Origin: Minisyncoccota bacterium
Lineage (GTDB): Bacteria > Patescibacteriota > Minisyncoccia > Moranbacterales > UBA2206
NCBI GenBank assembly: GCA_031291955.1
Contig: JARLIA010000005.1
Coordinates: forward strand, 74,034-138,033
Length of the DNA: 64,000 nt
Direction: 5' to 3'
Shown here: positions 23,015 through 56,870 of the stretch, piece after piece
Position numbering within the stretch: position 1 is the stretch's first letter
Layout of the letters: each line of letters starts with the position of its first letter
Program-made: the position numbers and the translations under genes
Notes under the pieces: generated by a model
Databases searched by the model: none
What the model was told of the DNA's origin: nothing
The model's input: the letters and a program-made list of their open reading frames with translations, nothing else

Positions 23015-26000
23015 ATGGACAAAATCATCATAAAAGGCGCGCGGGAGCATAATTTGAAGAACGTCGACTTGGAGCTGCCGCGGAATAAATTTATCGTTTT
23101 TACGGGAATTTCTGGGTCAGGGAAGTCGACCATGGCTTTTGATACTATTTTTGCCGAGGGGCAACGGCGCTATCTCGAAAGTCTTTCCAGTTACGCTCGG
23201 CAGTTTTTGGGGCAAATGAATAAGCCTGACGTGGACTATATTGAAGGTCTGTCGCCGGCCATTTCCATCGACCAGAAAGCGGCGTCCCACAATCCGCGTT
23301 CGACGGTTGGAACGGTGACGGAAATCCACGATTATTTGCGATTGCTATATGCCAAGATCGGCCGGCCACATTGTCCGATCTGCTCCCGGGAAATTACGAA
23401 GTTGTCGACAGATGAGATTGTTGATCGGATTTTGGAGATGTGCGCCGCGAAACCTCATCCGCCCCGGAGTACTGGGGCACCTTCTCCTTATAAAGGAGAA
23501 GGAGATAATGGAAGGGGCTGTTCTATCGAAATTCTATCGCCGGTGGTTCGCCAGCGGAAAGGGGAATATTCGACGATGCTGGCTGAGATGTTCCGGCGGG
23601 GGTTTTCCCGCGCTTACGTCAATGGGGAAAAATACGAACTGTCGGCCAAGATCGGAGACGAGTTGGAATTGGCCCGCTACAAAAAACATAATATTGATAT
23701 CGTGGTAGATGAGGTGGAGATATCTAGCGACAACATTTCGCGAATATTTGAAGGAGTGGAAAAGGCGCTGAAGTTGTCGGACGGACTGGTCAAGATAAGA
23801 TCCGAAATCCGAAATACGAAATCCGAAACAATGTCAAAATCAAAAATTAAAAATTCAAAACAAAACAATACGGAAATTGTTTTCAACCAAAAACTTTCTT
23901 GTCCGATCCATGAGATTGAGTTTCCGGAGTTGGAGCCGCGTTTGTTTTCTTTCAACAGTCCGTTTGGCGCTTGTCCGGCTTGCGAAGGATTGGGAACGAA
24001 AAAAGAAATCGACCCGGCGCTGGTGGCGCCGGATAAAAACAAAACGATTGCTGAGGGTGGCATCTTCCCTTGGAGCTACAAACGGAATAACTGGCAAGGG
24101 TCGGTTCTCCGGGCGGTTTGCAATCATTTCCACATCAAAGACAATGTGCGCCTCCGTGACCTTTCGGAAGATGACCTCAACATCTTAATGTTCGGCGGAC
24201 CGGATGCGACCGATATGATAGATAAGGAAGAAGCGGAAGAAATACCCGTCACTTTGAAATCAAAAACCGGTTCAAGCTGGAAATATTACATGACCTGGCG
24301 CGGAGCGGTCGGATATCTTCAAGATCGATATTTCAAGACCGATTCGGATGCGGTGCGGGCGGATATTGAAAAATATATGTCGCAAAATCCGTGTTCGGTC
24401 TGTCACGGCGCGCGTTACAAAAAAGAAGTCTTGCTGGTGACGGTCGGCGAATCCCGCCCGCAACGCTTCGCTAACGCAAGTGTTAGCTTGCGTAGCGATG
24501 CGGGCGGGAAAAATATTGTCGAAGTCTCAAATGTGTCTGTGGCTGAGACGCTTAAATTTTTCGAAAGACTGGAATTGAATAAAAATGAGCAGATCATCGC
24601 CGGGAGAATTTTGAAGGAAATTATTAATCGCCTAGGCTTTTTGGAAAACGTGGGACTGGGATATTTGACTTTGGCCAGATCCGCGGCGACACTAGCCGGC
24701 GGGGAAGCGCAACGGATCCGCTTGGCATCGCAAATCGGTTCGGGTCTCACCGGCGTTTTGTATATTTTGGACGAACCGTCGGTCGGTCTTCACTCGCGCG
24801 ACAACACTAAATTGCTCGAGACGCTTTTTCATCTGCGCGATCTGGGAAACACGCTAATCGTGGTTGAGCACGATGAAGAGACGATGCGGGAGGCCGACTA
24901 TTTGGTTGACATCGGACCGGGAGCGGGAAAATTGGGAGGTAAAATTGTGGCGCATGGCACGCCGGTAGAAGTTATTCGCGATAAAAAATCTTTAACCGCG
25001 GCATATTTGCGGGGTGACGCGAAAATAGAAATGCCGAAATTCCGCCGGCCAGTCAAGAATAAAAAAACGATTGTTGTCCGCGGCGCGCGCGAACACAATT
25101 TGAAAAACATTACCGTCGAGTTTCCTTTAAAAGTTTTGACGTGTGTGACGGGCGTGTCCGGCTCGGGGAAATCCACATTGGTAGAGGACATCCTTTATAA
25201 AGCCTTGGCGTCAAAAATCATGCGGACGCTCGACCGGCCGGGGAAACATTCGGAGATTGTCGGCACGCAATATGTTAACAAAGTGATCATGATCGACCAG
25301 TCGCCGATCGGTCGGACGCCGCGCTCCAATCCGGCGACTTATACCGGGCTCTTTACGCCGATCCGGGAATTATTTTCCCAGACCCGGGACGCCAAATCCA
25401 AGGGTTATGGTCCGGGGCGCTTTTCGTTCAACATCCGGGGCGGACGCTGTGACAACTGCCAAGGCGACGGCCAGCTTAAAATTGAGATGCAGTTCATGCC
25501 GGATGTCTATTTGCCTTGCGATGTCTGTCACGGAAAAAGATACAACAGTGAGACCTTGAAAGTGAAATACAAGGACAAAAACATTTCCGAAGTTTTGGAC
25601 ATGACGGTCAGCGAAGGGCGCGAGTTTTTTGAGAATTTTCCGGCTATTCACGACAAGCTGGCGGTTTTGGAAGACGTCGGCTTGGGCTATATCCAACTCG
25701 GGCAGTCCGCCACCACACTTTCCGGCGGGGAAGCGCAAAGGATAAAACTGGCCACGGAACTGGCAAGGAGGGCGACCGGCGACACTTTGTATATTCTGGA
25801 CGAACCGACGACTGGCCTCCATTTTGACGACATTAAAAAACTTTTGAATGTTTTGAACCGCTTGGTCGATGCCGGCAACACAGTGGTGGTGATCGAACAC
25901 AATTTGGACGTCGTCAAAACCGCCGATTGGATCATTGACTTGGGTCCGGAAGGCGGAGAAGGCGGCGGAAAAATTATCGTTACCGGTCCGCCGGAAGAAG

Positions 26001-30221: not shown

Positions 30222-30223
30222 AA

Positions 30224-30290
30224 AATTTTCAATTTTCAATTTTCAATTTACAATCAATTTTCAATGATTCAATTTTCAATTCAGAAGACG
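30224..30290. repeat. (TTTTCAATT)n tandem array
   Basis: AAAATTTTCAATTTTCAATTTTCAATTT...; a near-identical array recurs at 56738-56870. Confidence 0.6.
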
Positions 30291-30360
30291 ATGCGGACTT
30301 GAAAATTGATAATTATTTGAGTTGATCATTCATTGATGATTGATTATTGTAAATTGATAA

Positions 30361-31326: not shown

Positions 31327-31349
31327 CACTCTTCGAGCGCGACTGCTAA
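31323..31349 (+). promoter_or_regulatory. CIRCE operator (HrcA-binding inverted repeat) upstream of groEL
   Basis: TTAGCACTC-N9-GACTGCTAA differs from the consensus TTAGCACTC-N9-GAGTGCTAA at one position. Confidence 0.7.
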
Positions 31350-31435
31350 CGGTTCATGTAAACATATTAACATTTAAACATATTAACATGTTAAAAAAGT
31401 CTTTTGTTAACATGCTAATATGCTAACAGGCGAAC

Positions 31436-39270: not shown

Positions 39271-39348
39271 TCAGAACCACTGATTAACACTGATTATGCT
39301 GATTACACGTGAATTAATTTTTTTAATAAGAAATATAAACAACTTAGA

Positions 39349-40569
39349 ATGAAAGTTTTTTATTCGGCTAAAAGTTTCTCCGGCGAAACCAAGAGCGGAG
39401 AAATGGAAATCAAGGACGAGCGGGATCTGGCCATGCAGCTGCGCGCTGATGGTTATATTTTGACGTCCTTTAAAGAACTGAAAAGCAATAAGGAAAAAAC
39501 GGGGCGGATAAAATTCATGAACCGCTTTATTCGAATTTCGCTCACGGACAAACTCATGTTTACCCGTAATTTGAGCGTTATGGTTTCTTCGGGCTTGCCG
39601 CTTTCCAAGGCGTTGAAAAATATCGCCCTGCAGACCAAGAAAAAAAAGTTCGCCTCCATCCTTAATAAAGTATATGATGAAATCCAAGCCGGCAATTCCT
39701 TGGCCGACGGATTGAAGGAATATCCGGGAATTTTCAACGATCTTTTCGTCAATATGATCCGGGTCGGTGAAGCTAGCGGCAACTTGGACGAAGTGTTGGA
39801 CATTCTGGCCATTCAACTGGAAAAAGAACATGATCTGATCAGCAAGATCAAAGGCGCCCTGACTTATCCGGCCGTTATTCTTGTGGCCATGTTTGGAATA
39901 GGAATCATTATGTTGACCTATGTTCTGCCAAAAATTCTTGGGGTCTTTGCGGGGATGAATGTAGAGTTGCCAGAATCGACGAAGGTCGTGATAGCCATCA
40001 GCGATTTCTTGCGCTTCCATAGCATTTTGGCGATTTCTCTTTTTGTGGGCGTGATAGTTTTTCTGAAGTTCTATTTCATGACCGAGTCTGGCAAAAAAAC
40101 CTTGGGATTTCTGGCTATAAACACTCCGCTAGTCAGCAATATGGTCATCAAAATCAATTGCGCCAGATTCGCCAGGATCTACAGCTCACTTCTCAAATCT
40201 GGCGTGTCGGTGGTTGAATCGCTGCGCATTATTTCCGACACTCTGAATAATTATTATTATCATAACGCTTTTTTGGATGGCATGGACAAAGTGCAAAAAG
40301 GAATTCCGCTTTCCGATGTGATCGCCAAAAATACGAAAATCTTTCCCGTTCTGGTGTCTCAGATGATCCAAGTGGGGGAGGAAACCGGCAAGACCGACAT
40401 GGTGCTTTTGAAGCTGGCTGAATTTTATGAAGCGGAAGTTGATCAGCTGTCCAAAAACATGTCTTCCATCATTGAACCGGTGCTGATGATCGTTATCGGT
40501 TCAGCGGTTGGCTTTTTTGCTGTTTCCATGCTTGAGCCGATGTATTCCATCATGAACCAGATACAATAA
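39349..40569 (+). CDS. pilC: Type IV pilus platform protein PilC (GspF family)
   Basis: Two T2SSF repeats and three TM segments are present. The characteristic EAGNSLADGL and EETGKTD motifs are present. Confidence 0.9.
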   Translation: MKVFYSAKSFSGETKSGEMEIKDERDLAMQLRADGYILTSFKELKSNKEKTGRIKFMNRFIRISLTDKLMFTRNLSVMVSSGLPLSKALKNIALQTKKKKFASILNKVYDEIQAGNSLADGLKEYPGIFNDLFVNMIRVGEASGNLDEVLDILAIQLEKEHDLISKIKGALTYPAVILVAMFGIGIIMLTYVLPKILGVFAGMNVELPESTKVVIAISDFLRFHSILAISLFVGVIVFLKFYFMTESGKKTLGFLAINTPLVSNMVIKINCARFARIYSSLLKSGVSVVESLRIISDTLNNYYYHNAFLDGMDKVQKGIPLSDVIAKNTKIFPVLVSQMIQVGEETGKTDMVLLKLAEFYEAEVDQLSKNMSSIIEPVLMIVIGSAVGFFAVSMLEPMYSIMNQIQ

Positions 40570-40608
40570 TCGCAAAACGCAAAACGTGGAACGTAAAACG
40601 AAAACAAA

Positions 40609-42012
40609 ATGAGGAAAAAAATTAAAAAAATAAACAGCGCTCCACGCTCCACGCTCCACGCCCCACGATTTTCGGGGTTTACTCTCATCGAAGCCATGAC
40701 CTTGCTTTTTCTTTTTACCGTTATTGTTCTGACTTTTTATCAAGTATTAACGAAAGGAACGGGGTATATGGATTATTCCAAAAACCGCCTGGGGGCTTTG
40801 GCGGTGGCCAACGAGAAAATGGAAATCGCCCGGAACCTGGATTATGCCGATGTCGGCGCGACAGGAGAAGTTGCAAGTGGCAACATTCCCCAAGACGAAG
40901 ACGTGACCCAGAATGGCCATACTTATCACGTCCACACATTGGTGACTTATGTGGACGATCCGTTTGACGGAAAACTGGGCGGATCGCCCAATGATATGAT
41001 ACCCGAAGATTATAAATTGGTGGAAATTACTGTTTCCTGGAACACTGGCGGAGCGAATGCCGGAAGCGTTTCGCTCTCGTCCCGTTTCGTGCCGAATGGA
41101 TTGGAAATAGCCGATCCGAACACCGGCATTTTGTCGATCAATGTTATCGGGAGCGATGGTTCGGCTGTGACTGGTGCGGCCGTTCATATCGTCAATTCCA
41201 ATGTCGGCATCAATGAAACGCTCCAAACTGACGCGAGCGGAAACGCGATGCTGGTGGGCGCTCCGGCCATCCAAGATTATCAGATCATGGTTTCAAAATC
41301 TGGCTATGAAACCGTGGCAACTTTGCCGCCCTATCCGACTACGCCCTACAATCCAACCTATCCGTATCAGTCGGTGATAGCCGGTTCGCTCAACATAGCC
41401 AATATTATCGAAGATAAAACGTCCAATCTCACCGTCTCAACCACGGACCAATCCGGAAGTCCCGTGCCAGGTGTCGCTTTCAAGCTCTCCGGCGGACGCG
41501 TGCTGGGAACGCAGGCAATACCGCCGTTCGCGTCGGTCTATGATACTGATAATGTCAGCAACCAGACCGGGACGAACGGAACAAAGGAGTATGATGCCAT
41601 CAGTCCGGGCCAGTATACTTTTTCGCTCTCCGGTCCAGTGAGCGGCTACACGCTGGTTGGTATCGAGCCGACCTCGCCGTTCCCGCTGGCGCCAGGACAG
41701 AGTCTTAGTTTGAATGTGGGGCTGGCCAGTACGTCTGTCACCTCTGCTTTGATCAGCGTGTTCGACAGTGTGACTAACAAGGCTCTATCTGGTGCCAGTG
41801 TGGAATTGTCTAGTGCTTCCGGCTATGACAAAACGGTGACCACGGACAGTAATGGTACGGCTTATTTTCCCGTGACTGCCGGAGACGCGACATTTATCGC
41901 TGGCAACTATACGCTTAAAGTCAGCGCCAGCAGCTACCAAGCTGACACGGAGACAGTCATGGTGAGCAATGGCACACTTTTAAACAAATCGGTTTCACTG
42001 GTTGGCAATTAA
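40609..42012 (+). CDS. Large prepilin-type protein (467 aa) with carboxypeptidase-regulatory-like beta-sandwich repeats
   Basis: RFSG|FTLIEAMTLLFLFTVIVL is a class III signal. Downstream are repeated SxxGxAVxGAxVxI... beta-sandwich modules. Confidence 0.7.
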   Translation: MRKKIKKINSAPRSTLHAPRFSGFTLIEAMTLLFLFTVIVLTFYQVLTKGTGYMDYSKNRLGALAVANEKMEIARNLDYADVGATGEVASGNIPQDEDVTQNGHTYHVHTLVTYVDDPFDGKLGGSPNDMIPEDYKLVEITVSWNTGGANAGSVSLSSRFVPNGLEIADPNTGILSINVIGSDGSAVTGAAVHIVNSNVGINETLQTDASGNAMLVGAPAIQDYQIMVSKSGYETVATLPPYPTTPYNPTYPYQSVIAGSLNIANIIEDKTSNLTVSTTDQSGSPVPGVAFKLSGGRVLGTQAIPPFASVYDTDNVSNQTGTNGTKEYDAISPGQYTFSLSGPVSGYTLVGIEPTSPFPLAPGQSLSLNVGLASTSVTSALISVFDSVTNKALSGASVELSSASGYDKTVTTDSNGTAYFPVTAGDATFIAGNYTLKVSASSYQADTETVMVSNGTLLNKSVSLVGN

Positions 42013-42014
42013 AT

Positions 42015-42653
42015 ATGATTATTAACCGAAAAAAAATATTTCAAAACCGTTCCGGTTTGACGCTTGTGGAAATGATGATGGCCATTCTGATTTTTGTCAT
42101 TGGCATGGTCGGTTTCACGTTGCTTTTTTCCCGGACCTGGCAGATAAATTCCTACACGCTCCAGTTGGGCCAGGCTTCTCTCCAGGCTTCTCAAGGGATA
42201 AACAAATTAACCGATTATATCCGGGAAGTCAGCCAGGCGGACAGCGGCGCTTATCCGATTGTGTCGGCCAATAGCAATGATCTGGTGGTTTATTCCGATT
42301 ACAATAATGACGGCGCAGTAGAGCGGCTTCATTTTTATAAATCCGGCTCGAATATTCTTATGGGCGTTACCAATCCGACAACAACTCTGCCAAAAACCTA
42401 TCCGGTTGGCGATCAGCAGACATTTACGCTGGTATCCAATGTCGTCAATAGCGGCGTTCAACCGATCTTTTCTTATTACAACAATAATTATCCCGGCGAT
42501 ACGACCAATAATCCATTGGCCGTCCCCGCTGCGGTGGCCAATATCAGGCTGGTGGAAGTGCACTTGGAAATAAACACCAATCCTGCCCGGATGGCAAATA
42601 ATGTCGAAATGCAAACATTTGTGGAAATGCGGAATATGAATGACTATGATTGA
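42015..42653 (+). CDS. Minor pilin / pseudopilin
   Basis: QNRSGLTLVEMMMAILIFVIGMVG is the prepilin motif. Confidence 0.7.
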   Translation: MIINRKKIFQNRSGLTLVEMMMAILIFVIGMVGFTLLFSRTWQINSYTLQLGQASLQASQGINKLTDYIREVSQADSGAYPIVSANSNDLVVYSDYNNDGAVERLHFYKSGSNILMGVTNPTTTLPKTYPVGDQQTFTLVSNVVNSGVQPIFSYYNNNYPGDTTNNPLAVPAAVANIRLVEVHLEINTNPARMANNVEMQTFVEMRNMNDYD

Positions 42654-42667
42654 TCATATAGCGCACA

Positions 42668-44311
42668 ATGCGAAATCCGAATATGAAGAAAAAAAATAAC
42701 ACAATAAAAAACGTTCCACGTTTTACGCTACGCGTTTCGCGACGCGAAGGATCGGCTTTGGCATACGCTTTAATTATTATGTTGGCTGTGATGATTATTC
42801 TGACGTCCCTTATCAGTTATATCGTGAGCCAAATGAACTACAGTTCCAACCAGGCGGAGAGGCAGGAAGCTTTCGAAGTGGCGGAAGCGGGCGTCTCTTG
42901 GTATAACTGGTATCTGGCCCACCAAACCGACGGCAAAACGGCCCAGCAGATCAATAACTTTTGGCAGGGAACAAGTCCCAGTCCTTTAGGCATTGGTTCT
43001 CTCTATCAGCAAACCTTTACCGCTCCGGACGGACAGACGCTGGGAAGTTACAGTCTGGATGTTCAGCGCCCCGTTCTTGGCTCGACGATCGTGATAGTTA
43101 AATCGACCGGTTGGACCAATCGGGCGCCGAATGAAAAGCGGACGATCCAAGTTCGGTTTCGTCGTCCTTCCTGGAGTGAATATGCTGTTCTGGCTAACGA
43201 TGTGATGAGGTTCGGACAAGGAACGGTGATCAATGGAAAGATCCAATCCAATTATGGTATTCGTATGGATGGAACGGCTAATAACGTCGTCTCCAGTTCA
43301 GTGGCTTCCTATGACGATCCCGACCACAGCGGCAAAGTGGAGTATGGGGTGCATACGCATCTCATTCCGCCGGCAGATACAAGCCTGGCCGATCCTTATC
43401 TTAATAACGAAGCCCCGGCCAACAACGGTCTCATCCCGCCGGATCGGCCGGATGTTTTCAAGGCCGGCCGTAAATTTCCAGTGCCGACAGTGAGCTTTAC
43501 CGGCGTAACTTCCGATTTGGCTTATATGAAAACTCAAGCGCAATCCGGTAGCGGGAAATATTTTGACAATACCGGCAAAGGGCGTCAAATAATCTTGAAT
43601 TCGAACGGTACCTATACGGTTTATACTGTCAATTCTTATGACGCGCCGCCCTCTCCCTTGCCTTCTTCAACTTCCAACACCAATTCCATCACTGGTTACG
43701 CGGGTACCAAAAATTCCAACGGAACCGGCTCGGCTTGCACGGCGTTAGTAACAATGAACGGGCCAAACACGCAATGCAAAAACAAAACAACCGGCTCTAC
43801 TTGCTATTGTTCTTCAGCGACTTATACTATTCCCAATAATGGCATTATTTTCGTAGAGGACAATATTTGGCTGGAGGGCACAATCAATAAAGAAAAGGTG
43901 ACGATTGTGGCCGCCAATATGGGCAGCGGAACGCAGGCCAATATTTTTGTCGGCAACAACAATATTCTTTATACCAATTTTGACGGGCAAGATATTCTGG
44001 GCGTGATTGCTCAAGATGACGTGGAAGTGATCAAAAACAGTCAGACCACTCTGACTTTGGACGGTGCCTTCATCGCTCAGAACGGCCGGGTGGGGCGCGA
44101 TAACTACGGCACTTCTGACTATAAAAATTCCATCACTGTCAATGGCTCCATCGCGACCAATCAGCGTTATGGTTTTTCTTGGACAGATGGATTTAATAGC
44201 TGGGGATATGACGATCGCATCCTGAACTTCGACAACAATTTGATCTATTATCCGCCGCCCTATTTTCCGACCGGTACCGAGTATTCCATAGATCTATGGA
44301 AAGAGCTGTGA
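42668..44311 (+). CDS. PilX-like pilus-associated protein (N-terminal hydrophobic helix, large extracellular domain)
   Basis: GSALAYALIIMLAVMIILTSLISYIV followed by ...EVAEAGVSWYNWYL resembles the PilX N-terminal region. It lies within the pilus locus. Confidence 0.5.
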   Translation: MRNPNMKKKNNTIKNVPRFTLRVSRREGSALAYALIIMLAVMIILTSLISYIVSQMNYSSNQAERQEAFEVAEAGVSWYNWYLAHQTDGKTAQQINNFWQGTSPSPLGIGSLYQQTFTAPDGQTLGSYSLDVQRPVLGSTIVIVKSTGWTNRAPNEKRTIQVRFRRPSWSEYAVLANDVMRFGQGTVINGKIQSNYGIRMDGTANNVVSSSVASYDDPDHSGKVEYGVHTHLIPPADTSLADPYLNNEAPANNGLIPPDRPDVFKAGRKFPVPTVSFTGVTSDLAYMKTQAQSGSGKYFDNTGKGRQIILNSNGTYTVYTVNSYDAPPSPLPSSTSNTNSITGYAGTKNSNGTGSACTALVTMNGPNTQCKNKTTGSTCYCSSATYTIPNNGIIFVEDNIWLEGTINKEKVTIVAANMGSGTQANIFVGNNNILYTNFDGQDILGVIAQDDVEVIKNSQTTLTLDGAFIAQNGRVGRDNYGTSDYKNSITVNGSIATNQRYGFSWTDGFNSWGYDDRILNFDNNLIYYPPPYFPTGTEYSIDLWKEL

Positions 44312-44414
44312 GTCATATTAGCATGTTAACATTTAAACATGTTAACAAGAAATTTTTTCAATAAAAATGTTAATATGCTAAAATAATAATGTGCTAAAAT
44401 GTTAAAATGATCCC

Positions 44415-45482: not shown

Positions 45483-45522
45483 GGTATTGTTACAAATTTT
45501 GATTTTTTTAATTTAAATCCCC

Positions 45523-46077
45523 ATGGATATTCGTTTAAATCTTATCCCACCCAGAGAAAAGGAGGGTATTCTTAAAAAGAAACGGTTGAAGATGGTTATC
45601 CGCCTCGAAATTTCCGCGTCGGTCTTTTTGGTGATGTTTTTCGGCGTGCTGGTAAGTTTCAGATATATTTTGAATACGGGCTTGGCGGCTGATCAGCGCG
45701 CCCAGCAACAAAGTGAAGAAAGTTCCCAATATGGCCAGATCAAGCAGTATGACCAACAGTTCACCAAGATCAACGCGCAAGTTTCCCAGCTGACGGGAAT
45801 TGACCGGGAGCAGCTCTATTGGTCAAGGCTTTTAGACAAATTGGATAATCTTGTTTTTCCCGGCATCACACTTTCCTCGCTCACGACCAATGACTATGTC
45901 GTCAGCATGGGCGGCGTGGCCGATAACCGGGATGACCTGGTGCTTCTCAAGGAAAAACTGGGAAGTGAAAAATGTTTTTCAAATGTTGATCTGCCGCTTT
46001 CAGACCTGGTGGATCGGAACAATGTGTCGTTTCAGATCAATTTCGATATTCAACCAAGCTGTTTGGAAAACAAATAA
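45523..46077 (+). CDS. pilN: PilN-like bitopic membrane protein
   Basis: The N-terminus LNLIPPREKE followed by a TM segment is the PilN pattern. It lies directly after pilM. Confidence 0.65.
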   Translation: MDIRLNLIPPREKEGILKKKRLKMVIRLEISASVFLVMFFGVLVSFRYILNTGLAADQRAQQQSEESSQYGQIKQYDQQFTKINAQVSQLTGIDREQLYWSRLLDKLDNLVFPGITLSSLTTNDYVVSMGGVADNRDDLVLLKEKLGSEKCFSNVDLPLSDLVDRNNVSFQINFDIQPSCLENK

Positions 46078-46127
46078 TTCAAAAGAGTTATCCCAGGGCA
46101 AGTCCTTGGAATGAGCTTTTAAAAAAA

Positions 46128-46811
46128 GTGAAAAATATTTGGACAAATCATAGAATATCGGTCATTGTTCTAGGTTATGCTGTCGCGGTCGCGGTTGTCA
46201 GCTATTTTGTTTTTTGGCCGCTGGTGGCGGACATTCGGAACACTGCGGACGCGATTCAGGAAAATCTGCTTGATCAGCAGATCGACAAAACGCGCCTTCA
46301 AAATCTAGCTGGAATGCAAAAAGACGGAGTGGACTATCAAGCTGAAAAAAATTCTTTGAATGTTATTTTGGATCCGGGCAGTGAGGTGGGTTTTATTGAA
46401 GGCGTGGAAGCGATCGCTTCCAACACTAAAAATGCCATCAATCTTCAAATCGGTGATCATTCCGATCCAGCTCAAATCGCCAAAATGGGGAAAGTCAATG
46501 CCGCTGCCAGTAAGTCGAAAGCTCCCCAGGGTATCTTGGACAGTCTAACCCACAATAACTATTATCCGGTCCAAATAAATCTGACTGGCGATTATTCGGG
46601 TCTGGTTAATTTCATCCACGCTTTGGAAAATATGCAGTTTTATGTCAACATTGTTTCGATCAGTGTTAATAAAAATCAGGTTCCGGCCGATTCTTCCGGG
46701 AGCGTGTCGGGCAATATTTTCTCCAGCCAGCCAAATGCCGGAAATAGCAATGCCGATCAAAAAGAAGTTTTAAATACAATTATAAACGCGGTAGTTTACA
46801 CGCAAAAATAA
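46128..46811 (+). CDS. pilO: PilO-like bitopic membrane protein
   Basis: A TM segment is followed by a coiled coil. It lies at the pilO position after pilN. Confidence 0.55.
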   Translation: MKNIWTNHRISVIVLGYAVAVAVVSYFVFWPLVADIRNTADAIQENLLDQQIDKTRLQNLAGMQKDGVDYQAEKNSLNVILDPGSEVGFIEGVEAIASNTKNAINLQIGDHSDPAQIAKMGKVNAAASKSKAPQGILDSLTHNNYYPVQINLTGDYSGLVNFIHALENMQFYVNIVSISVNKNQVPADSSGSVSGNIFSSQPNAGNSNADQKEVLNTIINAVVYTQK

Positions 46812-47296
46812 TGGACCTCAATATAAACGGCGAAAATTTAAAAAATTTTTTCAAGTGGAGCAACGTCCGGGAAGGTTTTTTCGACTTTTTGGGACGCTGG
46901 GCTAAGTTGCTCTTACTTCTTCTGGCTGTTGCAGGCACGGCCTATTGTGTTTATCTTTGGTATATTTTTATTTATAATCCCGGTTGGAGCGATGTCCAAA
47001 AGCAGCACTATATCCAGACGAAAGGCCAGGGAGTTGTTTTTGACCAAGCCAAATTCAACGCTCTGGTGACGGTTGCCAAGAACCGGGACGTCGCCGAAAA
47101 ACAAGCGCTGACTAACGTGCTGGACATCTTTCGCCTGAAGTCGCTGATTGTGCCGCCCGGCGCGTCTGATTCCAGCACTACTCCCGCCGCCAATCCGCCC
47201 GCCAATTCCGCCACCACGTCCGACTCCAGCGCTGCTCCAGTCGCCAAGTCGCCAGCTTCCAGCCCGCCAGTCGTGGCGAGTCCTTCCGGAAACTAA
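46811..47296 (+). CDS. Hypothetical membrane protein with a Pro/Ser/Ala-rich tail (possible PilP-like component)
   Basis: One TM segment is followed by a low-complexity PAS-rich C-terminus. Position alone suggests a pilus role. Confidence 0.4.
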   Translation: MDLNINGENLKNFFKWSNVREGFFDFLGRWAKLLLLLLAVAGTAYCVYLWYIFIYNPGWSDVQKQHYIQTKGQGVVFDQAKFNALVTVAKNRDVAEKQALTNVLDIFRLKSLIVPPGASDSSTTPAANPPANSATTSDSSAAPVAKSPASSPPVVASPSGN

Positions 47297-47330
47297 AAAA
47301 CAATCCCGCCATGGAATTGTTTTTTTGTCG

Positions 47331-47620
47331 CGTGCGCCCTGAGGGATTCGAACCCCCGACCCCTTGGTCCCCCGCCTGCCACGCCGTGCCCTCGTCAGGA
47401 CTCGAACCTGAAACGCTTGTTCCGAAGACAAGTGTGATATCCCCGCCTGCCTACGCCTGTGCCCCCTAAAGGAATCGAACCTTTAACCTTCTGGTCCGAA
47501 GCCAGACGCTCTATCCATTGAGCTAAAGGGGCGCAGGCATAGGCGGGCACGGCGTTTCACCACGAGGGCGTGTACGGCGGGCAGGGAAGCCAAGTACTCT
47601 ATCCACTGAGCTAAGGGCGC
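47331..47620 (-). other. Nested tRNA-like array: two matched 5'/3' tRNA half pairs bracket tRNA-Arg(TCG) and are joined by long GC-rich helices
   Basis: The outer 5' half GCGCCCTTAGCTCAGTGGATAGAGTACTTGG (47619 downward) matches the 3' half CCAAGGGGTCGGGGGTTCGAATCCCTCAGGGCGCA (47368-47333). A middle pair has acceptor GCCCTCG / CGAGGGC, D-stem GTGA/TCAC, and anticodon arm CTTGTCTTCGGAACAAG. GC-rich inverted repeats flank each layer. Confidence 0.3.
47459..47531 (-). tRNA. tRNA-Arg (anticodon TCG)
   Basis: It is a canonical 73-nt cloverleaf: acceptor GCCCCTT/AGGGGGC, D-arm GCTCAATGGATAGAGC, anticodon loop CTTCGGA, T-loop TTCGATT. Confidence 0.8.
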
Positions 47621-47705
47621 ATAAATACATTCTGGCATTTCTTGGTAATTCCGTCCAGCGCGGATACGTAATTAATTACGTACGCAGTTGATAAGACTAA
47701 TAAAA

Positions 47706-47730
47706 ATGACCGGCAGTCCGGTCATTTTAT
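47706..47730. terminator. Bidirectional hairpin terminator (GACCGG-CAGT-CCGGTC) inside the tRNA cluster
   Basis: An inverted repeat with T/A-rich flanks lies between tRNA-His and the nested tRNA array. Confidence 0.4.
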
Positions 47731-47740
47731 CATGCTCTAT

Positions 47741-47813
47741 GGGCGGTCACTGGGAGTTGAACCCAGCTTCTCGGTACCACAAACCGATGTCTTACCGATA
47801 GACGATGACCGCC
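47741..47813 (-). tRNA. tRNA-His (anticodon GTG)
   Basis: An 8-bp acceptor including G-1 (GGCGGTCA/TGACCGCC) is present. The anticodon loop is TTGTGGT, the T-loop is TTCAACT, and the discriminator is C. Confidence 0.8.
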
Positions 47814-47819
47814 ATATTG

Positions 47820-47892
47820 TGCGCCCACCAGGGCTCGAACCTGGGACCGTTTGCTTAAGAGGCAACTGCTCTACCAACTGAGCTATGGGCGC
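47820..47892 (-). tRNA. tRNA-Lys (anticodon CTT)
   Basis: Acceptor GCGCCCA/TGGGCGC. D-arm GCTCAGTTGGTAGAGC. Anticodon loop CTCTTAA. T-loop TTCGAGC. Confidence 0.85.
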
Positions 47893-47937
47893 GAAAAATA
47901 AAACATTTTAATATGTTCGAATGTTAATATGCTTTTG

Positions 47938-48010
47938 TGCGCCGAGCAGGAATCGGACCTGCGACCAAAAGGTTAGAAACCTTCTGCTCTATCCACTGAG
48001 CTACCGGCGC
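47938..48010 (-). tRNA. tRNA-Arg (anticodon TCT)
   Basis: Acceptor GCGCCGG/TCGGCGC. Anticodon loop TTTCTAA. The T-loop TCCGATT is atypical. Confidence 0.8.
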
Positions 48011-48082
48011 GGGATTCCCGACACACTCAAAATACTAGCGCATTTTAAGCCATTAGTCAACATCGGGACGTTTTCACAATTA

Positions 48083-49393
48083 TTACAAACCGTGCGCTTT
48101 TTTGTAAGCGTTCCACTGTTTGACTGACCAGGCGACCGGTTTTTCAGTTATGATGGTTGGTTGTTGGCCGGGATGGGGATAAAGGGAGGGCGATTTGTAA
48201 TTGCTTTTGAAATCATCCTGGAACATCAGCGCTCCGGTCTTGTCATAGACTTCCTGGGTCCAGACGGTCTTCATGGAGCCATCCGGGTTGCGCTCCAGGA
48301 TGGTTGGCCCGACGGTTTTAACTGTCCGTCCGTCATTGGTCCCATAAAAATCGAAAATCAATTGGGTGCCGACGACCCTTGTTTGGATAAGAATATAACC
48401 GGGTGTGTTGTTGACAAATTTAAGATCCGGAGCGGGGATATAGACAGTGGCGTCGGTACCTTGAGGACTATAATATCCGACTGGATAAGCGTGGTTTTCG
48501 CGCGCGGTTATTTTGAGGCCGGTATTGACGGCTGCTCGGAAAGCGGTAGTGGAAACTTGGCACATGCCGCCGCCGTATTCGGGGATGGTGGCGTTGCCGA
48601 CGATGGAAAGTTCCGGCAGATAGCCGTGCTCGGCGTCCACTGGCCCCAAGGTATTCAAGAAAGAAAATTCTTCATTCGGCTTTATCAATGTTCCGTTGAA
48701 TTTGGCGGCCCCGGTTTCAAGATTGATCACCCTGTTATGCGGAGAGCCGACGAAGTTGGATACGCCTTCACCGATGAGGCTGGTAACGCCCATTTTGCCG
48801 GCTAGGTCGGCAGTGACGGTCGGTTGGGTGGTTATAAAGGGCAAAGTCAGGGCGGTGGCCGGATGGTCTTCTTGCAAATAATTTTCGAGAATGGCGACAG
48901 TTTTGGTTTGGTCAATGGCGATACCGGAACTGCTCAAGGAAAAGGCGGTTATTTTTCCGTCAGTCACCTCGAAGGTGGCGTTCTGGGCGGCCTTGTCGGT
49001 TTCTTTGGTTAAAGTATTTTTCACATAATCAGTCAGTTTGTTTTTATCAAGACTTAACGTTGTAATTTTTTGGATGTGACTTTGGTTCGCGTAGGAAAAA
49101 GTCAGTTGACAGATGGCGCTATTTTCATATGGGCAATAGGCGGTGTCAGCCATCTCGCTTGAATATTCCGGATTATATTTAAGTTCAGTCTTTTCGTTGA
49201 GCCAACCCAGAATAGCGGCTTTGTTTGTGGCGTACGGCGTTTTGTTGACACTCAAGGTGATTTTGTCCGGCAGTTTGGCGGCAAAAGTTTCCTCGTCCAT
49301 TTTGCCGAGAGTGATTTCCTGGGCGCGGCAAAATCCTGGTGAAAGGGCCAGGCAAACAAACAAAACAGCCAAAGTGTGCTTCGCTAATTTCAT
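48083..49393 (-). CDS. VanW-family secreted protein
   Basis: A signal peptide is present (MKLAKHTLAVLFVCLALSPGFCRA). The VanW core GGGMCQVSTTAFRAAVNTGLKITARENH is present. Start trimmed to the internal ATG. Confidence 0.8.
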   Translation of the reverse strand: MKLAKHTLAVLFVCLALSPGFCRAQEITLGKMDEETFAAKLPDKITLSVNKTPYATNKAAILGWLNEKTELKYNPEYSSEMADTAYCPYENSAICQLTFSYANQSHIQKITTLSLDKNKLTDYVKNTLTKETDKAAQNATFEVTDGKITAFSLSSSGIAIDQTKTVAILENYLQEDHPATALTLPFITTQPTVTADLAGKMGVTSLIGEGVSNFVGSPHNRVINLETGAAKFNGTLIKPNEEFSFLNTLGPVDAEHGYLPELSIVGNATIPEYGGGMCQVSTTAFRAAVNTGLKITARENHAYPVGYYSPQGTDATVYIPAPDLKFVNNTPGYILIQTRVVGTQLIFDFYGTNDGRTVKTVGPTILERNPDGSMKTVWTQEVYDKTGALMFQDDFKSNYKSPSLYPHPGQQPTIITEKPVAWSVKQWNAYKKAHGL

Positions 49394-49479
49394 GCTTTCA
49401 ATATACCACAGAACGGGGAGTAAGAAAAACACGGAAGCGCTTCCGTGTTTTGCTTATATCTTTTGTGTTTTTTTGGATA

Positions 49480-50031
49480 TTAGAATCCGCGTACTTGGAT
49501 TTTCTTGGACCGGGTGTGATCGGCTTTAGGCATCCGAATGGTGAGAATTCCGTTTTTCATGGAGGCTTCAATCTTGTCGGCCAAAACGTCCACTGGAAGG
49601 ATCACCGAACGGGAAAAGCCGCCCCAATAACATTCCTGGTAATAATAATTCTCTTCAATCACTTCTTCGTCTTGGCGCCGTTCGCCGCGGATGGTGATCA
49701 TGTCGTTGGAAATGCTCACGTCCAAATCTTCCGGTTTCACGCCGGCAATGGTGGATTTGATGACGATGTCGTTGTCGGTTTGATAGACGTCAATGGTCAG
49801 CTGGCCCTCGCCGTCTTCCTGCGCCGGAGTGTTATAACTCATGCTTTCGCGCGGTCCGGTCTGGTGGTTGGTGGGAGTGATTATCATCTCTTCCTCGACG
49901 TCCTCGGTGTAGATGTTGGGGGATTGGTTAGACTGGTTGGGGGAGAAGCGCTGTTCTCTTTCAAACTCTTCTTCGTCCATTCGCCGGGCGCCGGTTAGTT
50001 TTTCGAAAAACGATTTTTTGACTTTGGTCAT
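49480..50031 (-). CDS. Small heat-shock protein (Hsp20/alpha-crystallin)
   Basis: The alpha-crystallin domain is present (DVYQTDNDIVIKSTIAGVKPEDLDVSI...GILTIRMPK). Confidence 0.85.
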   Translation of the reverse strand: MTKVKKSFFEKLTGARRMDEEEFEREQRFSPNQSNQSPNIYTEDVEEEMIITPTNHQTGPRESMSYNTPAQEDGEGQLTIDVYQTDNDIVIKSTIAGVKPEDLDVSISNDMITIRGERRQDEEVIEENYYYQECYWGGFSRSVILPVDVLADKIEASMKNGILTIRMPKADHTRSKKIQVRGF

Positions 50032-50121
50032 ACTTTTTACAAATTTTATTTTTATCCGGTCGGATAAAATTTCCGCCGGGAGAAATTATTAGTGGGCTGA
50101 TTTCATTATAGGGGAGAATGA

Positions 50122-50688
50122 TTATTTTGACAAGGATTTTGTTTTCAAATATCGCAAGCAGAGAAAAACGCCGAAGATAAGAAGGATTCCGTCAAGCAGC
50201 CAATAGTTGACGTTACCGATAATGGCCGCGTTAAAAAGGAAATGAATGACGATGCCGATGAGGAAAGCCGGCCAAGTCTTCGTTATCGATATTCCTCGGA
50301 GCATGAAAGTGTAGCCGTAAACCAGCGCCGTGACAGTGTGGACAAGAAGAAGGCCGGCGTAAACGCTTAGGAGGAATGATGAAAGATAAGGATAGAGGGC
50401 GGCGTTCTGGATTATTTCGGCCGCGGAAAAGCCTAGGCCGATGAGCATGGCTTGGGGGAAGATAAGATTTTTTTCTGACGCCTGGGCGGCCATTTTCCAG
50501 ACGAAGATGAATGCTAGAATCTCCTCAACCAAAACCAAGACAATCAGAGTGGAACTTAGCTGGGTCTCGAGCGCGGGGTTTATCATTGATGGAAAAATAA
50601 TACTCAAGAGAATCTCCAGAACCAAAGCTCCGGCGGCCGCAAGTATTCCCCAGAAGAAAAATTTGATGTTTGATTTCATAAGTTGCAT
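50122..50688 (-). CDS. Intramembrane metalloprotease of the CPBP/PrsW type
   Basis: It is polytopic and carries EE (VEEILAF), a conserved His (HTVTAL) and HxxxN (HFLFN), consistent with CPBP/PrsW active-site signatures. Confidence 0.5.
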   Translation of the reverse strand: MQLMKSNIKFFFWGILAAAGALVLEILLSIIFPSMINPALETQLSSTLIVLVLVEEILAFIFVWKMAAQASEKNLIFPQAMLIGLGFSAAEIIQNAALYPYLSSFLLSVYAGLLLVHTVTALVYGYTFMLRGISITKTWPAFLIGIVIHFLFNAAIIGNVNYWLLDGILLIFGVFLCLRYLKTKSLSK

Positions 50689-50699
50689 TCCAATGCGGG

Positions 50700-51854
50700 T
50701 TACTTCAACTCCAAATTGGCGTCAGTTTCCAATTTTTTCCAGTTAGCTTTGCATATTTTTTTATCCGGCGCCAGCTTGTGCCGGTAATAGGCGGCGGCAG
50801 CGATCATGGCGGCGTTGTCTAAAGAGTAGCATGTATCAGGCATGATGTATAAAGTATTTTTTAATCCTTCTTTTATTTTTTCGCCGAGCTGGTGGCGTAA
50901 TTCGGAATTGGCGCTGACGCCGCCGGCCAAGAGGATTGTTTTAGGATTATATTTTTTGGCGGCGGAAATTGTTTTGGAAACCAGAACGTCACAGACTGCT
51001 TGCTGGAATTCGCGGCAAACTTCGGCCACAAATTTTTTATCCCCCAGCAATTTTTCATTTTTCTTCACCAAGTATAGCACGGCCGTCTTCAGTCCGGAAA
51101 AGGAAAAATTAAAATTCTTGGAGTTTATCATGGGCCGGGGAAGGGATATCGCATATCGCATATCGCGTAACGTGGAACCTGTATTTATTTTGCGCTCTGC
51201 GTTTTGCGCTTCATGCTCCACGCTTTGCGTTGCGCGTTTTGCGATTTCTGGTCCGCCGGGATAGCTCAAATTTAAGATGCGAGCCACTTTGTCAAAAGCT
51301 TCGCCGGCCGCGTCGTCCAGCGTCTGGCCGATGATTTCATAAACCAAATGTTTTTTCATCAGCACCAACTGCGTATGCCCGCCGGAAACGACGAGGCAGA
51401 GAATGGGGAATTGAATGGAAGAATTTTGAATTTGTTTGGGATTTGAGATTTTGGATTTAGTGCTTACGCGAATTTTGTCTTCGATAAAATTCGCGTAGAT
51501 GTGTCCTTCGATGTGATGGATGCCGATGAGCGGTGTGCGCCAAAGATAGGATAAAGTCTTGGCGGCTGTCGTTCCGACCAGAAGGGCGGGAATCAACCCT
51601 GGGCCGTTGGTGACAGCGATGAGATCGATGTCGCGCGAGGTTATGCCAGCTTCTTTCAGCGCGGCTTCGATTACGGGCGTAATATTTTTGAGATGTTCCC
51701 GGGCAGCCAGGTTCGGCACCACGCCGCCCCATTTGGCGTGGAGTTTGACTTGGGAAGAGACAATGCTCGAAAGCACCGTTAGATTATCTTTTTCTCCCGC
51801 CAAAACGGCCGCCGCCGTTTCATCGCAGGAAGTTTCAAGGCCGAGGATAAGCAT
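50700..51854 (-). CDS. tsaD: tRNA N6-threonylcarbamoyladenosine synthase TsaD, with a ~30-aa repeat-encoded insertion
   Basis: MLILGLETSCDETAAAVL and the metal-binding GIHHIEGH are present. The protein is 384 aa against a typical ~340. The insertion is encoded by a GCGTTTTGCG/CTCCACGCT repeat tract at 51120-51250. Confidence 0.9.
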   Translation of the reverse strand: MLILGLETSCDETAAAVLAGEKDNLTVLSSIVSSQVKLHAKWGGVVPNLAAREHLKNITPVIEAALKEAGITSRDIDLIAVTNGPGLIPALLVGTTAAKTLSYLWRTPLIGIHHIEGHIYANFIEDKIRVSTKSKISNPKQIQNSSIQFPILCLVVSGGHTQLVLMKKHLVYEIIGQTLDDAAGEAFDKVARILNLSYPGGPEIAKRATQSVEHEAQNAERKINTGSTLRDMRYAISLPRPMINSKNFNFSFSGLKTAVLYLVKKNEKLLGDKKFVAEVCREFQQAVCDVLVSKTISAAKKYNPKTILLAGGVSANSELRHQLGEKIKEGLKNTLYIMPDTCYSLDNAAMIAAAAYYRHKLAPDKKICKANWKKLETDANLELK

Positions 51855-55469: not shown

Positions 55470-56739
55470 TCCGGATAAATTTTTTGACATGAATCGACCG
55501 AAGCTCCTTATGTTCGGATGGGAATTTCCGCCGCATAACAGCGGCGGCTTAGGTGTAGCCTGTTTTGGTCTTTCCCGGGCTTTGTCCCGTCTGAACACTG
55601 AAATAATTTTCGTCCTGCCGCAAAAGATTCCGACCACAGCTGATTTTATGCGGGTAGTTTTTCCGGAAGATTATTTGAGCGAAGAGATTATCCGTCAGAG
55701 CCGCTTAACTGGAGATTTAATGTTGCACGCATATGTTACTTCCCAAGAATATCAAACCCAACTTGAGAAAGTCTCCTTGCTAAAAGGTGCGGTAACCTAC
55801 GCCAGTGATCTTTACGGCGAAGTGCGCCGCTACGGGGTGTTGGCTCGGGCGATCGCCAAAAAAGAAACTTTTGATGTTATTCATGCGCATGACTGGCTCT
55901 CTTTTCCTGCTGGCATCGAAGCTAAAAGAGTGAGTGGAAAACCGCTGATTGTCCATGTCCATGCTACAGAATTTGATCGCTGTGGCGGACCTGACATCAA
56001 TCGGCAGGTATTTGAAATCGAAAAAGAAGGTTTGGAGAAAGCGGATGGTATCGTGGCGATCAGTGAATTTGTGAAAAACAATATTATCCGAAATTACGGA
56101 GCTGATCCAAAAAAGATCCGGGTCATTCATAATGGCGTGGACGAAGAAGATTATGCGACTGATCCGGGCGCCCACGAAGGCTTCGAAGCGCTCAAGGCGG
56201 CCGGTAAAAAAATAGTTCTTTTCTTGGGACGGATTACTATTCAAAAAGGACCGGACTATTTTATTGAGGCAGCCAAAATTGTTCTCAACTACAATCCCGA
56301 TGTCATTTTTTTGGTGGCCGGCTCGGGCGACATGGAGCGGCAGATGATTCGGAAAGCCGCCGAACTGGGGATCGGAGACAAAGTTATTTTCACTGGATTT
56401 TTGCGCGGCAAGGAATGGCTCCAGGTTTTCCGCTCCGCCGATCTTTTCGTCATGCCATCCGTTTCCGAACCGTTTGGCCTTGTGGCGCTGGAATCGATGG
56501 TCAATGGTACGCCGGTTTTGATTTCCAAACAATCCGGAGTGTCGGAAGTGGCGCGAAATGTCCTCAAAACTGATTTTTGGGACACGGAAGAAATGGCTAA
56601 TAAGATTCTAGCAGTCTTGGGCAGCGAAGGCTTGCCGGCCGTGCTTAAAAAAGAAGGTTTTTCTGAAGCGCGCGAGATTAGCTGGAAAGAGGCGGCCAAA
56701 AAATGTATCGAATTTTATAACCAATTGGCACAGACATAA
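55456..56739 (+). CDS. Glycogen (alpha-1,4-glucan) synthase-like GT4 glycosyltransferase
   Basis: LLMFGWEFPPHNSGGLGVA resembles the archaeal-type GlgA N-terminus. The GT4 C-terminal motif is present (FVMPSVSEPFGLVALESM). An alternative ATG lies at 55489. Confidence 0.8.
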   Translation: MKWINPDKFFDMNRPKLLMFGWEFPPHNSGGLGVACFGLSRALSRLNTEIIFVLPQKIPTTADFMRVVFPEDYLSEEIIRQSRLTGDLMLHAYVTSQEYQTQLEKVSLLKGAVTYASDLYGEVRRYGVLARAIAKKETFDVIHAHDWLSFPAGIEAKRVSGKPLIVHVHATEFDRCGGPDINRQVFEIEKEGLEKADGIVAISEFVKNNIIRNYGADPKKIRVIHNGVDEEDYATDPGAHEGFEALKAAGKKIVLFLGRITIQKGPDYFIEAAKIVLNYNPDVIFLVAGSGDMERQMIRKAAELGIGDKVIFTGFLRGKEWLQVFRSADLFVMPSVSEPFGLVALESMVNGTPVLISKQSGVSEVARNVLKTDFWDTEEMANKILAVLGSEGLPAVLKKEGFSEAREISWKEAAKKCIEFYNQLAQT

Positions 56740-56870
56740 AATTTTCAATTTTCAATTTTCAATTTCTAAACAATTTCCAATGTATGAATTGATAAATTTT
56801 AAAATTGGTAAATTAAATAATTGTTTGAAAATTAAAAATTAGAAATTGAAAATTTAAATAATATGCCTTC
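56738..56870. repeat. (TTTTCAATT)n tandem array plus inverted GAAAAT copies
   Basis: ATTTTCAATTTTCAATTTTCAATTT...AATTGAAAATTT; the first 30 nt are identical to 30224-30253. Confidence 0.6.

Follow-up and report, generated by a model that had tools for sequence, protein, structure and literature searches.

The question raised by this 64,000-nt stretch of contig JARLIA010000005.1 from a Minisyncoccota bacterium (hereafter the window, meaning the whole stretch) is how a universal essential enzyme came to carry a translated tract of short repeats. The enzyme is TsaD (tRNA t6A37 threonylcarbamoyltransferase). The words that make up part of its coding sequence recur at the 5' ends of two pilin genes, one for a large pilin and one for a PilX-like protein. 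A preliminary description of the sequence took them for a family of short dispersed repeats that tolerate in-frame residence or are selected for it. We found every quoted word where it had been placed, and the vocabulary is truly common to the three sites and recurs at other loci and in other genomes. In-frame residence was also confirmed for the tsaD tract and two further tracts, all of which are translated. Rather than autonomous repeats inserted as units, however, the words are parts of degenerate 7-nt tandem arrays with inverted arms. We conclude that the tracts are a local case of the known, unexplained accumulation of 7-base repeats in bacteria, and no new mobile element.

The sequence analysed is the window only, and related loci (45 loci, 686 kb, mostly from GTDB genomes via their tsaD) were fetched for comparison. 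The nearest TsaD homologs are from metagenome-assembled genomes (MAGs) of Moranbacteria and Parcubacteria, and no exact protein match to the window TsaD is on record. The closest relative, L001, shares approximately 80% nucleotide identity with the window (its large-pilin ortholog is L063), and L184 is a more distant relative. Loci L186, L187 and L188, from three other Parcubacteria, encode TsaD proteins that are 63-67% identical to that of the window.

All three sites are heptamer arrays in which CG falls at a fixed phase of a 7-base register. The units (e.g., CGCAAAA, CGTGGAA and CGTAAAA) are degenerate and differ from each other mostly by transitions. They are accompanied by their complements (TTTTGCG, TTCCACG, CGATATG), and the layout is that of a foldback, a left arm followed by a right arm of complementary units. 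Tandem Repeats Finder (TRF) detects the arrays independently. Head-to-tail 7-nt units in at least three copies were found at 40571-40605 (period 7, 5.1 copies, 79% match), 40638-40667 (period 7, 4.3 copies, 95% match) and 51146-51166 (period 7, 3.0 copies, 100% match). The counts in the window exceed expectation for ACGTGGAACG (2 versus 0.11), GCGTTTTGCG (3 versus 0.50) and CCACGCT (11 versus 5.1), and in each case none of 100 shuffles reaches the observed number. The same is true of CGN5CGN5CGN5CG, i.e., CG every 7 bases four times in a row, with 12 occurrences against 1.54 expected and none of 100 shuffles as high; 9 of the 12 fall in the three sites. Runs of at least four CG at period 7 number eight in the window, five of them in these sites. 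Common k-mers shared by chance, which the preliminary description had named as the finding that would undo it, are therefore ruled out within the window by the shuffles of both the CGN5 pattern and the three words.

The 7-nt period extends well beyond these sites. With 17 of 21 self-matches at lag p as a strict threshold, there are nine arrays in the window at period 7 and none at periods 4-6 and 9-13, and shuffles yield none. Six of the nine are intergenic, a count that follows correction of two over-extended open reading frame (ORF) starts, and most of these abut start codons. The other three are in frame, in a UvrA paralog (at 23797), in the pilin leader and in tsaD. The related loci contain 112 period-7 arrays, with at most nine at each of the other periods that are not multiples, and shuffles again give none. 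Their units are diverse, AATTTTC-like ones being the commonest. A reverse-complement partner within 150 nt was identified for 37 of 132 arrays, compared with 5-7 of 132 in reverse-only and complement-only controls. The arrays of the three sites are thus one flavour of a clade-wide period-7 excess that involves many different units.

The tsaD product matches the solved chains 3ZET and 4YDU with E = 1e-77. Alignment to these E. coli and Salmonella proteins covers residues 1-211 and 238-361, which delimits the insert at residues 212-237 (site B). The extra segment reported earlier is real, although its size is 20 aa relative to 4YDU/3ZET rather than about 30 aa; the surplus over L001 is 16 aa. 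The outer 22 nt of the tract code for native residues. After the left arm, the register in coding sense continues as CGTTACG CGATATG CGATATG CGATATC. Another insert (site A) is 18 aa beyond 4YDU/3ZET, with a TRF period of 7 at 51435-51458. In TsaD relatives, two regions are hypervariable in length and sequence, one after HIYANFI (site A) and the other at PGGP-PRPM (site B). Across 44 TsaD loci, site B measures 18-55 aa in Patescibacteria, compared with 15-16 aa in two non-Patescibacteria TsaD, and period 7 is the top autocorrelation of site-B DNA in most of them. An AlphaFold2 model of the window TsaD (mean predicted local distance difference test score, pLDDT, of 77) is confident except at residues 126-145, 213-231 and the termini. 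Since pLDDT falls below 50 only in these two inserts and at the termini, both inserts look like disordered loops in the model. With its continuous ORF, the delimitation against 4YDU/3ZET and the pLDDT below 50 at 213-231, the tsaD tract resides in frame at a structurally tolerant place.

Site-B DNA of L186, L187 and L188 aligns with the window over both arms, and the encoded peptides differ (window KRATQSVEHEAQNAERK...STLRDMRYAIS; L188 KRATQNVERGTKITSRK...YALRVLR; L186 AAKCGSRIVDRGSKNDTRYALRDMR; L187 AAKRVARSVKRETKNAMRSTIHAMR). Site B of L188 opens with the same 22 nt as the window, ATCGCAAAACGCGCAACGCAAA, which are the native IAKRATQ codons (aligned to E. coli LSKMAAQG). It closes with TGCGTTGCGCGTTTTGCGA, a near-perfect inverted copy of ATCGCAAAACGCGCAACGCAAA. 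We infer that native coding sequence was first duplicated in inverted orientation, and that the insert formed in this way was enlarged by 7-nt slippage. Footprints of slippage were identified in two places. The window has a perfect (CGATATG)x3 where L186 reads CGATATG CGTTACG CGATATG, and L188 (2880-2990) has a 49-nt (7 x 7) tandem duplication in site B that is read in two frames, as TQNVERGTKITS and RNAKRGTWSENHIP. The genome that hosts L188 has a G+C content of only 38%. The tract is an old structure common to L186, L187 and L188. It is also replaceable, because site B of L001 (50 nt) contains (AAATCTA)x3 and no hairpin instead.

The RNA of the tsaD tract is predicted to form a long interrupted hairpin (-39.2 kcal/mol, z = -3.1, 1 of 200 shuffles as good), and in the minimum-energy fold the right arm pairs with the left arm. 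The value for the whole PGGP..PRPM stretch of the window is z = -3.8, and site B gives -4.7 in L187 and -0.9 in L186. A consensus hairpin of 20 pairs can be drawn for the window, L186, L187 and L188, with nearly all pairs kept in all four. Compensatory double changes are limited to 2 of these pairs, and covariation contributes approximately zero. Conservation of the pairing is evident, but selection for it is not demonstrated. Among the long site-B inserts of relatives, 10 of 27 have a fold z below -2. Very strong hairpins were also observed at site B in L035 (z = -8.7), L009 (z = -7.0) and L005/L006 (z = -4 to -5). In at least one of these the signal at period 7 is weak, and palindromic DNA of any kind thus seems to be favoured at site B. 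We also considered the idea that CG-type units are stop-free in all frames and tolerated for that reason. This is only partly true, given that all 6 frames are open in the pilin leader array and 3 of 6 in the tsaD tract, versus approximately 39% of frames in random 102-nt windows.

The two pilin sites have a different history. In the large pilin gene, the 5' untranslated region (5'UTR) array fills the 39 nt that separate pilC from the pilin gene and stops 3 nt before the ATG. It had been described as in frame, but it lies in this spacer and is not translated. A further array encodes part of the 23-aa leader, MRKKIKKINSAPRSTLHAPRFSG, which directly precedes FTLIE. The run reported as (CCACGCT)x4 does encode leader peptide, but only two CCACGCT copies are perfect and two are imperfect; in an alternative register it reads as three perfect CGCTCCA followed by CGCCCCA, i.e., a perfect simple sequence repeat (SSR) of three copies plus one imperfect in the 5' coding region of a surface-structure gene. 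Large-pilin orthologs mostly have leaders of 9-15 aa (e.g., MKKTKNNSG/FTLIE). The L001 ortholog has neither array, and the window gene has a 30-nt surplus over it exactly at the leader array. Other lineages of the large pilin have independent leaders with a 7-aa period (e.g., TKYQIQNTKYK), as a 7-nt DNA repeat would yield.

In the PilX-like protein, VPRFTLRVSRRE precedes a transmembrane segment, and the L001 ortholog has (GCTTCAC)x4 at the matching place. The large-pilin module at 40566-40669 aligns end to end with the 5' module of the L001 PilX-like gene (approximately 76% over 104 nt, score 65, z = 17.5), and its alignment with that of the window's own PilX-like gene has z = 12. Compared with the 5' end of the L001 large pilin, it reaches only z = 1.6. 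The leader peptides of the window large pilin and of the L001 PilX-like protein (MKKKIKKINNVSRFTLHASRSEG) are alike. Hence, the two pilin sites are not independent insertions but one duplicated 5' module of approximately 105 nt. The alignment shows a large-pilin module apparently copied from the PilX-like gene, 2 kb downstream, with the addition of about 10 leader codons, where the direction is deduced from the relatives. No arrays were found in either the large pilin or the PilX-like gene of L184, and the PilX-like leader array thus arose in the ancestor of the window and L001. The copy onto the large pilin was probably made later, in the window lineage. A conserved RNA hairpin that sequesters the pilin start codons was considered and rejected, as the module folds match shuffles (z = -0.37, -1.48 and +0.56) and the three modules yield a weak consensus (-4.6 kcal/mol, covariation term unfavourable). 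In L001, a foldback of approximately 140 nt (20165-20312) separates the large pilin from the next pilin gene; its arms consist of (AAGATAC/AAACAAG)n and the complementary units. The corresponding spacer in the window is 2 nt long.

Arrays turn over between related genomes in both length and unit. None of the three sites is alike in the window and L001, which has (AAATCTA)x3 in tsaD, (GCTTCAC)x4 in the PilX-like gene and no array in the large pilin. Near-identical DNA was found only in GCA_031291895.1 (a MAG labelled 'Candidatus Pacebacteria'; L002/L060) and in the Logan contigs L061 and L062. The GCA_031291895.1 contig differs from window positions 39137-51533 by 11 mismatches and no gap. The check on repeat length between strains that had been proposed shows no change among these near-identical assemblies (0 gaps in 12.4 kb), and the copy number of the leader tract is the same in the window and in L060. 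L061, from the same population, begins at window position 40639, exactly where the (CGCTCCA)n leader tract starts, a coincidence that may be due to a copy-number branch in the assembly graph or to chance.

CpG-phased arrays are also found far from this genome. A metagenome scan for three CGYRRAA units in a row recovered at least 120 stretches. Among the matches listed, most are on unrelated contigs of 55-70% G+C, and the commonest units are CGTGAAA, CGTAAAA, CGCAGAA and CGCGGAA. For the 77 of these matches with both flanks, a complementary array is present downstream in 18 and upstream in 5, with 0 in the control. L029 carries CGTGGAG CGCAAAA CGCATAA CGTGAAA immediately 3' of uvrB, and a 17-mer, CGCAAAACGTGGAACGT, is identical in the tsaD of L188 and at window 40578-40594 (the pilin 5'UTR). 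From the recurrence in metagenomes, L188 and L029 it follows that CpG-phased heptamer foldbacks are a widespread class, convergent or dispersed, and no private mobile element of the source genome. The notion that period 7 is special to Patescibacteria was rejected, as it was also seen in the controls Dethiothermospora (L044) and Alkaliphilus (L059). At 310-16810, L044 (Dethiothermospora halolimnae, Firmicutes) has approximately ten (AAAGAAT)n/(ATTCTTT)n arrays, several of them inverted pairs 100-150 nt apart. Thus, heptamer foldbacks are not confined to Patescibacteria.

We favour, with moderate confidence, an origin of the tracts as heptanucleotide arrays born by slippage, reshaped by inverted duplication and local copying, and filtered by selection to permissive in-frame places. 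Slippage by 7 nt during replication would generate the arrays, and the clade appears to be extremely prone to it. Inverted duplication, probably by template switching, would make the right arm; in tsaD, the native IAKRATQ codons would have become the outer left arm and their inverted copy the outer right arm. The 5' module would have been copied from the PilX-like gene to the large pilin gene. In an essential gene, presumably only versions that keep the frame and are free of stops survive, and only at sites where the added peptide is harmless. Candidate places of this kind are the disordered loop of TsaD, the large-pilin leader, which is presumably cut off by the prepilin peptidase, and the extension ahead of the predicted membrane segment of the PilX-like protein. 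The peptides themselves probably have no function and are merely carried along.

Several observations weigh against this account. Site-B DNA is kept over both arms in four lineages while peptides and frames change, and a neutral, fast-evolving array is unlikely to persist in this way, which hints at constraint on the nucleic acid or at self-correction from arm to arm. The fraction of long site-B inserts that fold far better than shuffles is beyond what slippage alone predicts. The 17-mer shared by L188 and the window, together with the vocabulary next to uvrB in L029, suggests dispersal or strong convergence. Current slippage is not demonstrated, because no copy-number variation was seen among the window, GCA_031291895.1 and the two Logan contigs. 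Some of these observations lead to the proposal that the site-B foldback is kept at the nucleic-acid level, either as a functional RNA or DNA structure within coding sequence or as a foldback that maintains and copies itself. It rests on DNA and a periodic hairpin that are retained while the peptide drifts and the frame changes, and cites the related copies at pilin 5' ends and 3' of uvrB. We consider it improbable. If true, a self-copying foldback would be an in-frame selfish element that needs no transposase and that creates protein segments in Patescibacteria.

The leading alternative, a functional role of the foldback as a nucleic-acid structure, also in the pilin genes, seems unlikely to us, too. 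Here, CpG clamps spaced 7 nt apart, with small internal loops between them, would form a periodic hairpin that could set mRNA stability, processing, pausing or translation initiation (in tsaD mRNA or DNA and across the pilin start codons). It could instead be bound by a protein able to read steps of 7 nt, for instance one with a cold-shock domain. The conserved DNA with diverging peptides, the 20-pair consensus and the fold values of the window, L187 and L009 are as this predicts. The arms flank the region of the ribosome-binding site and ATG in two pilin genes and the L001 ortholog, several other window arrays stop 2-5 nt before start codons, and the TAACTGA repeats of Beggiatoaceae, for which a translational role was proposed, likewise abut starts, and CspB binds with one protein per heptamer (PMC4679880). 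However, the near absence of covariation at site B, the shuffle-like folds and poor consensus of the pilin modules, the weak fold in L186, and the absence of both the tsaD foldback and the large-pilin arrays from the closest relative all speak against it. A small non-autonomous palindromic mobile element that persists where it is in frame, resembling a Rickettsia palindromic element (RPE), a miniature inverted-repeat transposable element (MITE) or a repetitive extragenic palindrome (REP), would account for the inverted arms, for a vocabulary shared by unrelated loci and unrelated genomes, and for presence or absence between species (the large-pilin arrays; the 140-nt foldback of L001). It could also draw on the AT-type copies that are 87% identical at 30222 and 56738, and on RPEs as in-frame precedent (review PMC10969869). 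We nonetheless hold it to be quite improbable. There is no full-length consensus with defined ends, and end-to-end alignment is limited to the two pilin modules; outside this pair, no two sites are more similar than 39 nt at 77%, and the repeat search of the window gives matches of 37-38 nt at 70-71%. Neither terminal inverted repeats distinct from the arrays nor target-site duplications were found at the boundaries relative to L001, L063, L184 and E. coli. Furthermore, the outer tsaD arm is native coding sequence, orthologous sites hold arrays of different units, and lengths vary continuously in 7-nt steps.

Very improbable, in our judgement, is a contingency locus in which the (CGCTCCA)x3 of the large pilin and the array upstream switch or tune pilin translation by 7-nt slippage. 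A surface-filament gene does carry a perfect heptamer tract near the start of its coding sequence, an array abuts its ATG, and heptanucleotide phase variation has precedents (PMC13001214, PMC8262952); a polymorphic copy number could also have broken the assembly graph at the start of L061. Yet only three copies are perfect, their number is equal in the window and GCA_031291895.1, arrays are mostly degenerate, and similar ones are found in the essential tsaD and in uvrA, where on/off switching would be senseless. As for k-mers that coincide by chance in a genome containing CpG, the sharing of one 14-mer is no surprise in 64 kb (approximately 15 such pairs are expected), the repeat search yields 810 inverted pairs in the window, and CCACGCT is present at eight other places. 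This reading has almost no probability left; it is already refuted by the CGN5 shuffles and the module alignment (z = 12-17.5), and it does not account for the specificity for period 7.

The tracts have the defining features of the bacterial heptanucleotide long-SSR class. In the passages of PMC4679880 and PMC4692102 that cite Mrazek et al. 2007, heptanucleotides are given as the most abundant class of long SSRs in most bacterial genomes, and polymerase slippage is proposed. Described examples are the TAACTGA arrays of Beggiatoaceae, which immediately precede start codons (PMC4679880), and the GGGAATC arrays of Xanthomonas and Nostoc, with inverted pairs and extensive turnover between species in Xanthomonas (PMC4692102). 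Like these and the cyanobacterial short tandemly repeated repetitive (STRR) sequences, the arrays here consist of head-to-tail 7-nt units with a strong period-7 excess, are mostly intergenic and often right upstream of starts, include some inverted pairs, vary in length and sequence between close species, and occasionally reside in ORFs in a stop-free orientation. They differ in the host (Patescibacteria of the Parcubacteria group), in mixed CpG-phased units (CGYRRAA) instead of one fixed heptamer, in the in-frame location within a universal essential enzyme at a site common to several lineages, and in the recruitment of one arm from native codons. A literature search for these repeat strings, or for such arrays in Patescibacteria, found none.

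Other known systems resemble the tracts less. RPEs are also translated hairpin DNA at tolerant sites of conserved proteins and add tens of residues, but their copies measure 100-150 bp and share a family consensus that can be recognised. Here there is no full-length consensus, length changes in 7-nt steps and the palindrome is partly native; a palindromic hairpin of RPE or MITE type is evident for tsaD and not for the pilin modules. The repeats in the 5' coding region of neuO and the 7-bp repeats in the hmw1A/hmw2A promoters are similar in being 7-nt repeats in or just upstream of a surface-structure gene, and as here only multiples of three units preserve the frame. Those loci have long perfect tracts with documented copy-number polymorphism, whereas here there are three perfect copies and no variation in the available assemblies. 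Borg tandem repeats (PMC9879509) are likewise fast-evolving in-ORF repeats that yield low-complexity or disordered segments, although their units are multiples of 3 nt in perfect direct repeats and those here are of 7 nt, degenerate and inverted. A unit of 7 nt therefore gives a peptide period of 7 aa (21 nt). REP sequences and bacterial interspersed mosaic elements (BIME), which are extragenic, with a short GC-rich palindrome, a conserved 5' tetranucleotide and an associated RAYT transposase, do not match, as two of the three tracts are in ORFs, the arms are 7-nt periodic and there is no compact REP stem.

These results offer an origin for odd low-complexity inserts in Patescibacteria proteins (e.g., KSKISNPKQIQNS, NFQFPISNFQ, TKYEIRNTKYEI), which would be translated 7-nt DNA arrays and not protein-level inventions. 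The site-B peptides NFQFPISNFQ, KFEIRNSKFEI and YEIQDTRYEIQ are explained by period-7 DNA. Annotators and structure predictors can regard such segments as passengers. With its clean period-7 signal (112 versus at most 9) and a conserved insertion hotspot in a universal gene, the clade suits tests of 7-nt slippage preference, and is thus a good system for asking why bacteria favour it, a question outstanding since the explanation credited to Mrazek et al. 2007 was put forward. Whether inverted heptamer arrays are selected as hairpins could be revealed by the same system.

Table 1. Positions of the genes, arrays and modules discussed (window coordinates).
Feature	Position	Strand	Description
In-frame heptamer tract in UvrA paralog	23797..23870	+	CGAAATC CGAAATA CGAAATC, then AAAATCA-type units; encodes KIRSEIRNTKSETMSKSKIKNSKQNN
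Duplicated ~105-nt module	40566..40669	+	Array, ATG and Lys-rich codons, array; paralogous to PilX-like 5' module
CGCAAAACGCAAAACGTGGAACGTAAAACG	40571-40600		
5'UTR heptamer array	40571..40605	+	Untranslated; CGCAAAA CGCAAAA CGTGGAA CGTAAAA CGAAAAC
Large pilin gene	40609..42012	+	467 aa; prepilin G/FTLIE motif, then CarboxypepD_reg-like domains; 23-aa leader
Leader-coding heptamer array	40638..40674	+	CGCTCCA x3, CGCCCCA, CGATTTT; encodes APRSTLHAPRFS
PilX-like 5' module	42645..42745	+	Upstream array GCGCACAATGCGAAATCCGAAT, ATG 42668 or 42683, Lys-rich codons, leader array
PilX-like gene	42668-44311	+	ORF
AACGTTCCACGTTTTACGC	42710-42728		Within PilX-like ORF
PilX-like leader array	42712-42745	+	CGTTCCA CGTTTTA CGCTACG CGTTTCG CGACGCG; encodes VPRFTLRVSRRE
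tsaD	50700..51854	-	384 aa; ORF; PF00814 TsaD homologs
Site-B tract, CG-phased heptamer foldback	51144..51245	-	20 extra residues (212-237) = 51144-51221
(ATATCGC)x3, perfect	51146-51166		Within tsaD
Right arm of site-B tract	51148..51179	-	Coding sense GGTTCCACGTTACGCGATATGCGATATGCGAT; perfect (CGATATG)x3 microsatellite
Left arm of site-B tract	51215..51245	-	Coding sense ATCGCAAAACGCGCAACGCAAAGCGTGGAGC; units CGCAAAA, CGCGCAA, CGCAAAG, CGTGGAG
Native IAKRATQS codons	51222-51245	-	Outer left arm of site-B tract
Site-A insert	51420..51479	-	Residues 126-145, IRVSTKSKISNPKQIQNSS; AT-type heptamers AAATCCA, AAATCTC, AAATCCC, AAACAAA

The window contains further arrays outside the three sites. 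AT-type heptamer foldbacks at 12668-12744, 30219-30365 and 56739-56858 occupy the entire spacer between co-directional genes. Their arms consist of (AAAGTTA)n/(TAACTTT)n and (AATTTTC)n/(GAAAATT)n. The 3' arm stops 2-5 nt short of the following start codon, and no Shine-Dalgarno sequence is obvious. Positions 30222-30274 and 56738-56790 are 87% identical over 53 nt, including an AATTTTC array plus non-array sequence, and are a genuine dispersed repeat pair of the AT-type flavour. The UvrA-like paralogs at 23015-26062 and 27408-30221 (1015 and 937 aa) share blocks that are 71-74% similar in nucleotides, and the heptamer tract is carried by the first.

A period-7/14 array (AAGTATA/CAAGTAT) at 1487-1525 lies 2 nt upstream of the likely true start of a TrpRS-like gene (MNKPRIFSGIQPSG..., ATG 1485, minus strand). 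The ORF start at 1593 is probably an over-extension. Period 8 is the sole other enriched period in the window. Arrays of this period, of the CATATTAA, CATGTTAA and TAACATGC types, were identified at 31347-31439, 44313-44409 and 47902-47934; all are intergenic, and they are related to one another both as direct and as inverted copies. Repeats that resemble tRNAs form a cluster at 47498-48010, within which the Logan contig L061 ends.

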